Shown: positions 1-38,823 of the stretch, piece by piece
How the letters are laid out: each line of letters begins with the position of its first letter
How positions within the stretch are numbered: position 1 is the first letter of the stretch
From: Escherichia phage YZ1
Strand: one strand, 5' to 3'
Sequence record: NC_047927.1
DNA length: 38,823 nucleotides
Program-made: the position numbers and the translations under genes
Notes under the pieces: model-generated
The model's input: the letters and a program-made list of their open reading frames with translations, nothing else
The model's database searches: none
What the model was told of the DNA's origin: nothing

Positions 1-217
1 TCTCACAGTTCAAGAACCTCAAGTCTCCCCATAGGCCCTCTTTAAGTCCAGACCAAAGGCCCTACCCCAGTCTATCATAAGGCTGGACCGATGGTCAAGA
101 CGTTAGGTCAACGATAGGTCTAGGCTATGGCTGGAGGTCAGGACGATAGGTAGGGACTATGGGTCTGCCTCTGAGTCCCTATCTGTATAGTGATATAGTA
201 TAACCATAGGTCCTACA

Positions 218-302
218 ACCTACAGTCTAACTAACCTACAGTCTAACTAACCTACAGTATCAACCATAAGACACTCACACCCTACAGTCAAAGACCTACA
301 GT
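218..302. repeat. Left-end array of five CCTACAGT octamers (first two copies inside a tandem 16-bp unit ACCTACAGTCTAACTA)
   Basis: Direct reading: CCTACAGT at 219, 235, 251, 281 and 295. Analogous in position to the short repeat arrays next to the T7 terminal repeat. Confidence 0.8.
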
Positions 303-556
303 TAATAGACACAAAGCTATAGACTTAAGGTCAAGGACATGTTAGTCAAAGACTATATCCTATTACTCACCATGGGGCCGACGATAGCTTCATCAATATT
401 ATTTAAGATTACCTATCGACTACAGGTCCAGACTATGGCTTCATCGCTTCCGTCAACACGACACGGCAACAACCGGATAGTGAAGACGCCGGGTCATCCC
501 GGTTCAGTAGACAGCCTGATAAGTCATACGAACAACAGGCAGATGACAGAAAGTAG

Positions 557-24721: not shown

Positions 24722-24771
24722 AAGGGCCTATAGATTTACCTTAACTATCACTATAGGGACTATAGGCCCTT
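24722..24771 (+). promoter_or_regulatory. Perfect 12-bp inverted repeat (AAGGGCCTATAG / CTATAGGCCCTT) enclosing the next phage promoter
   Basis: Arms at 24722-24733 and 24760-24771 are exact reverse complements with a 26-nt loop that contains the promoter core; possible RNase III site or terminator analogous to T7 R13. Confidence 0.5.
24739..24761 (+). promoter_or_regulatory. Phage RNAP promoter (T7 phi13 position)
   Basis: CTTAACTATCACTATAGGGACTA, predicted +1 G at 24756. Confidence 0.75.
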
Positions 24772-24790: not shown

Positions 24791-25261
24791 ATGTATATTC
24801 GCAAAGCTACGGAACCAGATGTCCACTACTTTCTGGGGCATCTTTCAGCAGATGATGTTAATGAGTGCAAAGCAAACTATGGGTCAACCGTTGGTCTCTC
24901 TGAAAGACTGCTTAAGCACCTATCTCCGTCATCTGTGGTTTTAACGAACGGTGTAGGCGAAGTGTTTTCCTATGGTGGGAACCAAGGGGATAACGTGTGG
25001 TTCTTGACTTCCGGTCTTGTCTACAAGCTGAGACCTAAAGAGAAGAGAGAGTTCACAAAGCGTATCTCTGAGTACAGGGACTTAATGTTAGACCAATACG
25101 GGACCATCTGGAACTACGTGTGGTCAGGCAATAAGTCTCACATTAAATTCTTGAAGCTGCTTGGGGCTAAGTTCCATGATGATTGGACTATCAGCCCGGT
25201 AACTGGTGAGCGTTTTCAACTATTCACTATCTCTAAGGAGGACGTATGTGTGAACCCGTAA
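24791..25261 (+). CDS. Protein in the gene 13 slot (156 aa); homology to T7 internal virion protein A not verified
   Basis: ORF after a phage promoter with TAAGGAG SD; overlaps the gp14 start; no motif I can confirm. Confidence 0.55.
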   Translation: MYIRKATEPDVHYFLGHLSADDVNECKANYGSTVGLSERLLKHLSPSSVVLTNGVGEVFSYGGNQGDNVWFLTSGLVYKLRPKEKREFTKRISEYRDLMLDQYGTIWNYVWSGNKSHIKFLKLLGAKFHDDWTISPVTGERFQLFTISKEDVCVNP

Positions 25262-36370: not shown

Positions 36371-38130
36371 GTAAAGACTTAGTGGCGCGTCAGGCGCTAA
36401 TGACAGCACGTATGAAGGAAGACTTCGTGTTCTTCCTGTTCGTCCTGTGGAAAGCTCTGTCACTCCCGGTCCCGACTCGCTGTCAGATTGACATGGCGAA
36501 GAAACTATCGGCTGGTGACAACAGGCGTTTCATCCTACAGGCGTTCCGTGGTATCGGGAAGTCCTTCATTACGTGTGCATTCGTGGTCTGGAAACTATGG
36601 AACAACCCAGACCTGAAGTTCATGATTGTGTCGGCCTCAAAGGAACGAGCCGATGCGAACTCCATCTTCATCAAGCGAATCATCGACCTCATGCCTCAGC
36701 TTCAGGAACTCAAACCTAAGCAGGGACAGCGAGATGCGGTTATCAGCTTCGACGTTGGGCCAGCCAAACCAGACCACTCACCCTCGGTTAAGTCCGTTGG
36801 TATCACTGGTCAGTTGACTGGTAGTCGTGCTGACATCCTGATTGCCGATGACGTGGAGGTTCCGAACAACTCAGCGACTCAGTCTGCACGAGACCGTCTG
36901 TCAGAGCTTGTGAAAGAGTTCGACGCTATCCTGAAGCCGGGAGGTACAATCATCTATCTGGGTACTCCTCAGAACGAGATGACCTTGTATCGTGAGCTGG
37001 AAGGCCGTGGATACACCACTACCATCTGGCCTGCTCGTTATCCACGCGACAGGAAGGACTGGCAGTCTTACGGCGACCGTCTGGCACCGATGCTTCAGGC
37101 AGAGCTTGAAGATGACCCTGAGTCCTTCTACTGGCGTCCGACCGATGAAGTACGATTCGATGATACGGACCTGAAGGAACGTGAGCTGTCCTATGGTAAA
37201 GCTGGCTTCTCTCTACAGTTCATGCTTAACCCTAACCTGAGTGATGCTGAGAAGTACCCTCTGAAGCTCCGTGACCTTATCGTAGCCGACTTGGACCCAG
37301 CGTCTAGCCCAATGGTATACCAATGGCTTCCTAACCCTCAGAACAAGCGTGAGGACGTTCCTAACGTTGGACTCATGGGTGACTCATACCACACGTATCA
37401 GACTGTAGGTTCTGCCTTCAGTTCGTACACCCAGAAGATTCTAGTCATTGACCCTAGTGGTCGTGGTAAGGATGAAACTGGTTATGCGGTACTGTACCAG
37501 CTCAACGGCTACATCTTCGCTATGGAAGTTGGCGGTATGCGAGGTGGCTATGAAGACTCTACGCTGGAAGCCTTGGCTAAGATTGGTCGTAAGTGGAAGG
37601 TCAACGAATACGTCATTGAGGGTAACTTCGGTGATGGTATGTACCTTGAGCTATTCAAGCCTGTAGCTTCCCGTATTCATCCTGCTGCTGTAACTGAAGT
37701 GAAGAGTAAGGGTCAGAAGGAACTCCGCATCTGTGACGTTCTGGAGCCTATCATGGGGTCTCACCGACTTATCGTTAACGCTGCTGCTATCGTCCAAGAT
37801 TACCAGTCTGCCTCTGATAAGGATGGTGTTCGTAATCCTATCTACTCTCTCTTCTACCAGATGACACGCATCTCTCGTGAACGTGGAGCATTGGCACACG
37901 ATGACCGACTTGATGCGCTGGCTATCGGTGTACAGTTCTTCGTTGAGTCTATGGCGAAGGATGCCAACAAAGGCGAACGTGAAGTCACTGAGGAGTGGCT
38001 GGAGGAACAGATGGAGAACCCACGGAAAGGCTTCGAGTCCATCCGCACTGAGTTCTGGGACAATGGGGTCCGGGTAACTCACGATACGGACGACGAGCTG
38101 GGGCTAGGGTCCTACGTTACGTTCCACTAG
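36367..38130 (+). CDS. Large terminase subunit / DNA maturase B (T7 gene 19 homolog, 587 aa; apparent TTG start)
   Basis: Colinear near-identity with T7 gp19 ([41 protein letters not shown] Walker [76 protein letters not shown]). TTG at 36367 has AAGGAGG 7 nt upstream; the first ATG is 11 codons in. Confidence 0.95.
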
Positions 38131-38224
38131 CTGAATGAATAACTATAGGCGAAAACTGAATTAATACGCAGTTAGTAACCTATAGTTACTACCAGTCTAA
38201 CCTACTGTTTTATAAGGAGTTTGG

Positions 38225-38247
38225 ACTTAACTATCACTATAGGAAGA
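38225..38247 (+). promoter_or_regulatory. Phage RNAP promoter near the right end (T7 phiOR position)
   Basis: ACTTAACTATCACTATAGGAAGAC, predicted +1 G at 38242. Confidence 0.7.
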
Positions 38248-38426
38248 CTCCCGGTTACTTATAGTATTACTGTAGTGAATATACATATGCAGACTTTATG
38301 CAAGACCTTAGGAGGAAGACTCCGAGTTCTTACCTAAGGCTTGCACCGATGGAAGGAGGGTGATATTAATCATAATCCCTCCAATACAGATAGTCACCGA
38401 CCATAGATACAGGAGGTATGTAGCAT

Positions 38427-38585
38427 ATGGCAAAGACCAAAGCTGTACTTAAAGCTCTGGCGACCAATCGAGCTACATACAGGTTTCTTGCTGCTGTTCT
38501 ACTTGCTGCTGGCGTTACTGCTGGAAGTAAGTGGGTCGGGTGGGTCGAGACTCTCGTATGTTCTCTGGTGTCTCAGTGTAATTAA
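38427..38585 (+). CDS. Hypothetical small membrane protein (52 aa; T7 gene 19.5 position)
   Basis: Not in the ORF track. AGGAGG upstream of ATG 38427; hydrophobic stretch FLAAVLLAAGVTAG. Confidence 0.4.
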   Translation: MAKTKAVLKALATNRATYRFLAAVLLAAGVTAGSKWVGWVETLVCSLVSQCN

Positions 38586-38618
38586 CGCAATCATGGTAAC
38601 GATTCATGAGCGGAAGAC

Positions 38619-38661
38619 CTAAGGTCAGTACGTGGATAAAGACTCACTCTACTGACCTTAG
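38619..38661 (+). repeat. Perfect 12-bp inverted repeat (CTAAGGTCAGTA / TACTGACCTTAG) with a 19-nt loop near the right end
   Basis: Direct reading; the arms are exact reverse complements. Confidence 0.7.
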
Positions 38662-38748
38662 CTACTGTAGTCAAGGACTTTAGGTAACACCTTAATAGAA
38701 GCTCACTTAGGGTCATCCTACTTATTGGTCTATCCTAGTGTCGCCTGA

Positions 38749-38786
38749 CCTACGGTCCTTGACCTACAGTAGCTGCCACCTACGGT
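38749..38786. repeat. Right-end array of three CCTAC(A/G)GT octamers
   Basis: CCTACGGT at 38749, CCTACAGT at 38763, CCTACGGT at 38779; same octamer family as the left-end array at 218-302. Confidence 0.75.
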
Positions 38787-38823
38787 CACTCGATGAGTTT
38801 TGGACCAAAAGTTTGAGACCACA

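Follow-up and report, generated by a model that had tools for sequence, protein, structure and literature searches.

An inverted repeat between gene 19.5 and the right terminal repeat of a Kayfunavirus genome, a candidate counterpart of the T7 M-hairpin

Analysis of the right end of the Escherichia phage YZ1 genome (NC_047927.1; the whole analysed stretch of 38,823 nucleotides is called the window below) points, on balance, to the perfect inverted repeat that follows the last gene as the Kayfunavirus counterpart of the T7 'm' site (M-hairpin), a cis-acting DNA fold-back. Judged by its position and structure, this repeat most plausibly functions in the processing of concatemers and the duplication of the terminal repeat (TR) in this phage. 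Two characteristic features are common to the repeat and the T7 site: (i) the location in non-coding DNA between gene 19.5 and the right TR, downstream of a phiOR-type promoter, and (ii) an inverted repeat that is capable of folding back and is under selection, as indicated by the perfect 12-bp stem of the window, by a core that is paired in all 38 distinct relatives, and by covariation. A role in DNA processing is best supported because the repeat sits at the place of the T7 M-hairpin, whose deletion impairs concatemer processing, although the element is described as nonessential (PMC2680503). The proposal of the first-pass annotation that the repeat is a processing element is thus backed by comparative evidence and by its position next to gene 19.5.

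Right end of the genome and geometry of the repeat

More than 200 phage records match the last 724 bases of the window, and nearly all of them belong to Kayfunavirus, at 80-99% identity; the window is a genome of this genus (K1F-like Autographiviridae, subfamily Studiervirinae, T7 supergroup). Its first bases, TCTCACAG, are the same as the start of T7, and its final bases are ...GAGACCACA. The annotated TRs of CR44b, EcoDS1, SH5, and Ro45lw begin at the window end, either exactly or at most 2 bases off. Since the match with the relatives stops at the start of the TR, the window is a complete genome without the right TR, which, by the annotated TRs of these relatives, would start at position 38824.

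The layout of the right end is that of T7 (see the table). The large terminase gene ends at position 38130 and is followed by one of the nine AACTATCACTATAGG-type promoter sites of the window, all of which are on the + strand (0 sites expected); the records of T7, T3, K11, and BA14 have phiOR in the corresponding position. The product of the last gene aligns with gp19.5 of T7, T3, K11, and BA14 at 31-39% identity with 10 invariant columns, and a transmembrane helix is annotated in the CR44b homologue. The inverted repeat begins 33 nt past the stop codon of this gene; its centre lies 184 bp, and its end 162 bp, to the left of the predicted start of the right TR. Further to the right there is a cluster of ACCTACGGTC / GACCTACAGT motifs at 38746-38787, and positions 38796-38823 are 97% identical among the Kayfunavirus right ends. 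The repeat had been placed by the first-pass annotation between the last small gene and an array of octamers: the position stands, and the array proved to be three copies of a 10-12-nt motif that are not regular.

Features of the right end of the window and stems at the same place in other Studiervirinae
Feature	Position	Strand	Sequence	Basis or remark
Left copy of the direct terminal repeat	1..180	+		Local alignment of window 1-400 with the annotated TRs of four relatives, ends 180-181
Phage RNA-polymerase promoter, positional equivalent of T7 phiOR	38229..38247	+	AACTATCACTATAGG-type	One of nine sites
T7 gene 19.5 homologue, last gene	38427..38585	+		52-aa small membrane protein; ORF and alignment
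Left arm	38619..38630		CTAAGGTCAGTA	Conserved 11-bp core is 38619-38629
Spacer	38631..38649		CGTGGATAAAGACTCACTC	Holds inner stem, apical loop, and near-invariant ACTCT at its 3' side
Right arm	38650..38661		TACTGACCTTAG
Conserved block directly after the hairpin	38662..38676	+	CTACTGTAGTCAAGG	Alignments of relatives
Three short-repeat units	38746..38787	+	TGACCTACGGTC, TGACCTACAGTA, CACCTACGGTC	Related to the arm motif GACCTAAGGTC
Near-invariant concatemer-junction block	38789..38823	+		Alignment of relatives; last base adjoins the absent right TR
T7, T3, K11 stem			AGGGAT...ATCCCT
Stem of BA14-like phages			AGTGATTAT/ATAATCACT	Compensated variant AGTGATAAT/ATTATCACT
L061 stem			GGTAATCA/TGATTACC
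L052 stem			AGTTAATTAT/ATAATTAACT
L068/69 stem			GCCCAT/ATGGGC
L072 stem			CTTTAAGTG/CACTTAAAG	Apical loop GATAAAGACT matches that of the window

The search for inverted repeats returned two arms of 12 nt, 100% complementary and 19 nt apart, at precisely the coordinates at which the first-pass annotation had located them. That annotation also described the 19 nt as a loop; the length is correct, but the spacer is not a plain loop, as the DNA folds pair GTG (38632-38634) with CAC (38645-38647) in an inner stem that covaries in relatives. The 61-nt segment folded as single-stranded DNA has a predicted energy of -11.3 kcal/mol (z = -3.6), and the z-scores of the Kayfunavirus hairpin range from -3.6 to -5.6. 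The window contains two perfect inverted repeats of at least 12 nt with a loop of 3-40 nt, compared with a mean of 0.13 in 300 dinucleotide shuffles of the whole window, 7.7% of which contain at least one.

Apart from the right-end repeat, the genome has a single perfect 12-bp inverted repeat, at 24722-24771 (AAGGGCCTATAG / CTATAGGCCCTT, 26-nt spacer). It encloses a promoter of the phage (AACTATCACTATAGGGACT, 24743-24761), which is shortly followed by a ribosome-binding site and an ATG at 24792. The hairpin of this second repeat would be whole in read-through transcripts, whereas transcripts started at the enclosed promoter would contain only the right arm. Another imperfect inverted repeat of about 26 nt, formed by 38660-38685 and 38748-38774 (2 mismatches, 1 indel, 62 nt apart), abuts the 12-bp repeat at the right end. 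This fold-back dominates the single-sequence DNA fold of the window (region z = -4.7); it is lost in the consensus fold of 38 Kayfunavirus sequences and was rejected as a part of the element. A comparable 23-nt repeat follows the first hairpin of K11 (L023 688-778).

It is scarcely credible that the hairpin is a transcription terminator or a pause signal for the phage or host RNA polymerase. A stable hairpin does end the last transcription unit; however, the right arm is followed by CTACTGTAGTCAAGGACTTTAGG rather than by a T-run, and a terminator scan of positions 38000-38823 found no terminator-like sites, in agreement with the first-pass annotation, which had denied that the repeat is a classic intrinsic terminator. 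An intrinsic (class I) terminator was rejected on the same grounds, with 5 G-C among the 12 pairs of the stem, CTACTGTAG after it, and no T/U tract. Moreover, T7 packaging depends on a class II pause site, which lies at the concatemer junction and has no hairpin (bioRxiv 10.64898/2026.02.12.705533), and the counterpart of this site in the window is the invariant block 38796-38823, not the repeat.

Two further candidates were rejected. The 25-aa ORF 38606-38683 overlaps the repeat, and a coding role was rejected because the spacers of relatives differ in length by 2 and 4 nt, which breaks the frame. A leftward sigma-70-like promoter (TTGACT N17 TAGAGT, with TAGAGT at 38651-38646) scores at chance level, 9/12; in T7, the right end enters the cell after the host RNA polymerase has already been inhibited.

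Conservation and covariation within Kayfunavirus

For the comparison, we used 19 GenBank phage right ends and 48 IMG/VR loci found by a gp19.5-alignment search, with 38 distinct Kayfunavirus sequences. All pairs of the 11-bp core are Watson-Crick in 38 of the 38 distinct right ends. Column identity amounts to 99.5% for the arms (99.6% for the right one) and to 73% for the spacer; further right, the less conserved stretches have 60-83%. The twelfth pair is variable: position 38630 is A in 47% of the sequences and T in about half of them, giving a T.T mismatch. Thus, the pairing of 12 bp described by the first-pass annotation holds for the window, whereas only 11 pairs are kept in relatives. The spacer exists in ten alleles, with 17, 19, or 21 nt between the 12-nt arms. 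The first-pass annotation had named lack of conservation together with dispensability as the finding that would speak against a role; the repeat is conserved and covaries, and, since the T7 counterpart is described as nonessential, dispensability would not count against the role either.

The changes that do occur in the outer stem are all from one Watson-Crick pair to another, and G.U pairs are found in 0 of the 38 sequences. In the divergent relative L051, the arms are TTAAGGTCTGTA / TACAGACCTTAA, and the perfect 12-bp stem is kept by two compensatory double changes. An arm-pattern search of IMG/VR, with two arm positions left free, found 24 contigs with the repeat in this context, and the arms are compensated in all of them (A/T in 23 and T/A in 1). 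Depending on the spacer allele, an inner stem of 3-5 bp forms from unrelated sequences: GTG/CAC in the window, TAGC/GCTA in the K1F-type, GTAGG/CCTAC in L051, and GGTAG/CTACC in L072; this stem also covaries at alignment columns 22-35, where GC is replaced by AU in 4 of 11 sequences. Among the 11 distinct sequences used for the covariation analysis, four pairs are substituted on both sides; 0 of 500 shuffles reached the observed covariation score of 0.131 (0.071 in shuffles). The pairing register is sharp, with 91% of cells paired in these 11 sequences compared with 20-43% when the partners are slid.

The same arm-pattern search returned non-Kayfunavirus matches (L076/84/91/103, L083, L085, L089), which were set aside, as their number is about that expected by chance and their contexts are unrelated. 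One of them, L089 9016-9064 (IMGVR_UViG_3300021512_000007, a 41.7-kb contig of an unrelated phage), is a perfect 22-bp inverted repeat, CGCTCTAAGGTCAGTGCTCATT / AATGAGCACTGACCTTAGAGCG, with the 9-nt loop GAAAGACCT, and it sits between small genes in a gene cluster. The core CTAAGGTCAGT...ACTGACCTTAG that it has in common with the window is probably a coincidence.

The ACTCT stretch (38646-38650) is near-invariant across the differing spacer alleles, though the fold model leaves its TC unpaired. This conservation suggests a sequence-specific constraint beyond structure, for example, a nick or recognition site. Structure alone leaves the near-invariant unpaired stretch unexplained, which counts against a pure fold-back reading.

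Many relatives have one extra small ORF between gene 19.5 and the hairpin (L003 (K1F), L012 (SH5), L020 (Seyj3-1), L014/L016, L028, L034, L036, L038, L044, L047, and L048), of about 10 to 45 codons and of at least three unrelated kinds, each with its own ribosome-binding site; the window has no such ORF. The insertion point is always immediately to the left of AAGACCTAAGG. In K1F, SH5, Seyj3-1, and EcpYZU01, the extra small ORFs directly precede the repeat, with which the conserved non-coding block thus begins on its left side.

Hairpins of other Studiervirinae and alternative readings

In every examined Studiervirinae lineage whose right end is of the junction type, the corresponding position is occupied by a hairpin, the stem of which differs in sequence (see the table). 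Such hairpins were found in T7, T3, K11, the BA14-like phages, L052, L061, L068/69, L072, and gh-1, with z-scores from -2.3 to -6.4, and the T7/T3/K11 types recur in 73 IMG/VR contigs. Between the T7 and T3 hairpins, four compensatory pairs are exchanged and the mismatch positions are unchanged. Despite the differing stems, the motif AGTCAA is located 4-7 nt past the right arm in all enterobacterial Studiervirinae examined; it is common to the window (38669-38674), T7 (L001 614-619), T3, K11, the BA14-like loci, and L061, and its reverse complement is TTGACT. That compensatory evolution has preserved a hairpin at this location, in Kayfunavirus as well as in several further genera, argues for a fold-back that selection maintains as part of the junction machinery, and against a peculiarity of T7.

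That the repeat is a palindrome without function, arisen by chance or as a by-product of two oppositely oriented short repeats, is very improbable. About 8% of shuffled genomes have at least one perfect 12-bp short-loop inverted repeat, and related motifs abound in both orientations at the right end. Such an origin is hard to reconcile with arms that are far better conserved than the more variable flanking segments, with the compensatory changes, and with the presence of a hairpin at the same place in every lineage examined, and the reading is strongly disfavoured.

Covariation within a perfect inverted repeat is equally expected of a dyad-symmetric protein site with co-evolving half-sites, which weighs against the fold-back reading. 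In that case, the arms would be inverted copies of GACCTAAGGTC, and a dimeric protein of packaging or replication, for instance the small terminase, would recognize them on duplex DNA that does not fold. The resemblance of the arms to the neighbouring repeats ACCTACGGTC and GACCTACAGT fits such a site, as does the resemblance of the L051 and L072 arms to those phages' own short repeats (the C to T change in the L051 arm parallels changes in its other short repeats). Invariant arms around a variable spacer are also in line with it, and in T7, gp18 recognizes PacB near the junction (PMC9860248). Nevertheless, we consider a duplex site improbable. Spacers that differ by 2 and 4 nt fit poorly with a dimer bound rigidly to duplex DNA, since the distance between the arm centres varies by 4 bp, or about 137 degrees of helical phase. 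In addition, an inner stem kept via unrelated sequences would be needless for a duplex site, the T7 and T3 hairpins hold their mismatch positions while exchanging four pairs, and fold-back DNA species are reported for T7 (PMC4281155 and PMC2680503).

Another reading, rather unlikely in our view, places the element in RNA: the rightward transcripts, both late ones and those from phiOR, would carry a stem-loop just past gene 19.5 that stabilises their 3' ends or is processed in the manner of an RNase III site, without any function as DNA. Because the nine phage promoters are all rightward and one of them, at 38229-38247, lies 370 nt upstream, its transcripts extend across gene 19.5 and the repeat. 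The plus-strand RNA fold has an energy of -20.5 kcal/mol (z = -3.8), and on this strand an additional G.U pair is possible in the inner stem of the window type. Relatives with inserted small ORFs also have the hairpin downstream of their last ORF, as do all the others. The gh-1 record (NC_004665 37000-37069; L025 601-670) labels the positional counterpart 'R13; putative RNase III recognition site'. This is the sole annotation among the records examined, the counterpart being unannotated in those of T7, T3, K11, BA14, K1F, CR44b, and EcoDS1. The gh-1 hairpin is likewise situated between the last gene and the right TR of a Studiervirinae phage, whereas it is longer (28-nt arms, 71% complementary) and has G.T pairs on the sense strand, and its RNase III label is a prediction of the annotator.

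The helix of 12 + 3-4 bp is short for RNase III, as RNase III of E. coli requires a substrate of about 20 bp or more. Likewise, the predicted RNA fold of the repeat, with 12 + 4 pairs, falls short of an RNase III processing site of the kind found in T7-type phages, an interrupted double-stranded RNA stem of about two helical turns. An argument from an unannotated RNase III site near T7 39,588 was dropped, since the T7 RefSeq table lists no such sites even around R18.5. An Rfam scan of the right end found nothing relevant and no family matches. The outer-stem changes without G.U in 38 sequences also disagree with an RNA element, and T7 genetics ties the region to DNA processing (PMC2680503).

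The mismatches provide a further distinction between DNA and RNA. In the hairpins of T7, T3, K11, the K1F-type, and L052, A.C mismatches on the sense strand correspond to G.T pairs on the bottom strand, which is opposite to the prediction from selection on mRNA. The T7 hairpin has energies of -7.2 kcal/mol for the plus strand and -11.1 kcal/mol for the minus strand as DNA, and of -15.8 and -25.1 kcal/mol, respectively, as RNA. Overall, the non-transcribed-sense strand folds better by 2-4 kcal/mol as DNA and, for T7, by 9 kcal/mol as RNA. This asymmetry is modest: it is reversed in gh-1, with its G.T pairs on the plus strand, and absent from the symmetric outer stem of the window. It favours a role of DNA over a role of mRNA, which we regard as a lean and not as a proof.

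Comparison with T7 and a proposed role in concatemer processing

In the T7 interval from gene 19.5 to the TR, the strongest inverted repeat is that at 39568-39608; it starts 30 nt after gene 19.5, and its centre is 190 bp from the TR. This fits the distance of about 190 bp reportedly given for the T7 m site in 1990. By its adjacency to gene 19.5, its rank as the best repeat in this interval, and this distance, the repeat at 39568-39608 is presumably 'm'. Work on the m site was reportedly published by Chung, Nardone & Hinkle in 1990, by Kim & Chung in 1996, and by Kim, Kim & Chung in 1997. The hairpin intermediate is said to have been proposed for T7 in 1990 and, to our knowledge, this proposal has rarely been followed up since. 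The M-hairpin adjoins gene 19.5, and a deletion of both 19.5 and M leads to late lysis and small plaques (PMC2680503). Hairpin DNA containing the TR was found in T7 infection and supports a model of repeat duplication (PMC4281155).

Comparison of the window with T7 revealed several common features of the two sites: (i) both are non-coding inverted repeats directly after gene 19.5 and downstream of phiOR, (ii) their centres lie 184 bp (window) and 190 bp (T7) to the left of the right TR, (iii) both form two-tier hairpins that are significantly more stable than shuffles, and (iv) both are followed by the AGTCAA block, then by short repeats, and then by the concatemer junction. The arm sequences, in contrast, are unrelated (AGGGAT.../...ATCCCT in T7 and CTAAGGTCAGTA in the window), and the only sequence that the two sites have in common is the flanking (T)AGAGTCAAG / GTAGTCAAGG block and the layout of short repeats. 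The stem of the window is a perfect 12 bp with a large structured spacer, whereas the 19-nt arms of T7 contain four mismatches and enclose a 3-nt loop. As the arms are unrelated, the homology is positional and structural and not one of sequence. Hairpin-ended DNA and the deletion phenotype are features of T7, documented only for T7.

In late T7 infection, phage DNA is present as head-to-tail concatemers with one terminal repeat per junction. Under the preferred fold-back reading, the late genome of the Kayfunavirus would likewise be in head-to-tail concatemers, with a single TR at each junction. Transcription and replication from the phiOR-type promoter at 38229 would then separate the strands at the repeat. 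Either a single strand or, as a cruciform, both strands could fold into the two-tier hairpin consisting of the 12-bp stem, an internal loop, and a 3-5-bp stem, a step that is suggested here by the predicted folding potential and its conservation. The folded DNA would give rise to a hairpin-capped end about 180-190 bp to the left of the TR. This end may serve as an intermediate or a primer in the duplication of the TR and the cutting of the concatemer, so that both neighbour genomes would get a full repeat. The element would raise the efficiency of processing and would not be strictly required. In PMC4281155 and PMC2680503, hairpin-ended species are reported only for T7, and their role is a model even there. 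The regeneration of the full TR on each T7-like genome cut from the concatemer is still poorly understood (PMC13595956).

If the T7 model is right, the element resembles the telomeres of parvoviruses and poxviruses and the 3' hairpin of phage N4, where a fold-back near the end lets a polymerase copy the terminal sequence. Those hairpins are physical termini, whereas the repeat of the window lies inside the genome, about 365 bp short of the mature right end, and would form the end of a transient intermediate only.

A T7 specialist would expect such an element; what is new is the comparative argument for the hairpin as a selected part of the junction. A broader claim, which we put forward tentatively and hold to be possible but doubtful, is that the hairpin after gene 19.5 is a universal, structure-defined cis element of the Studiervirinae junction, and that its bottom strand folds and is the actual primer or substrate of TR duplication. 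If this is true, the different stems across genera (the T7, T3, K11, BA14, K1F, L051, and L072 types) make the 35-year-old hairpin model directly testable. For practical purposes, the element is best kept in K1F-like packaging-signal plasmids, transducing particles, and minimal synthetic genomes.

The first-pass annotation also considered a packaging (pac-like) element, and in the strict sense of the term this part of its proposal is not supported. The T7 Pac site consists of PacB and PacC, with PacB being bound by the small terminase gp18 and required for packaging and PacC being the site of terminase cleavage at the TR boundaries (PMC9860248); the cutting sites are thus at least 162 bp away from the repeat, and its identification with PacC was rejected. 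Like PacB and PacC of T7/T3 and the class II pause site, the repeat would act in cis within the same non-coding region of about 250 bp in the conversion of concatemers to unit genomes. The PacC cleavage and pause signals are, however, at the TR boundary or within a few bases of it, with the repeat of the window 162 bp further left, and those signals are recognized as sequence, whereas the repeat is conserved as structure.

At the junction itself, TTTTGGACCAAAAGTTTGAGACCACA|TCTCACAG (38796-38823 joined to window positions 1-8) is almost invariant and parallels ACCATAAAAATCTGAGTGACTA|TCTCACAG of T7, the location of the class II RNA-polymerase pause site at the concatemer junction. The junction block of the window also holds a small TTTT/AAAA inverted repeat (38798-38801 with 38807-38810). 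Just to the right of the left TR, at positions 224-300, there are tandem copies of AACCTACAGTCTAACT(A) and more ACCTACAGT units, which share their motif family with the hairpin arms and with the short repeats of the right end; they resemble the short-repeat arrays that flank the terminal repeats of T7.
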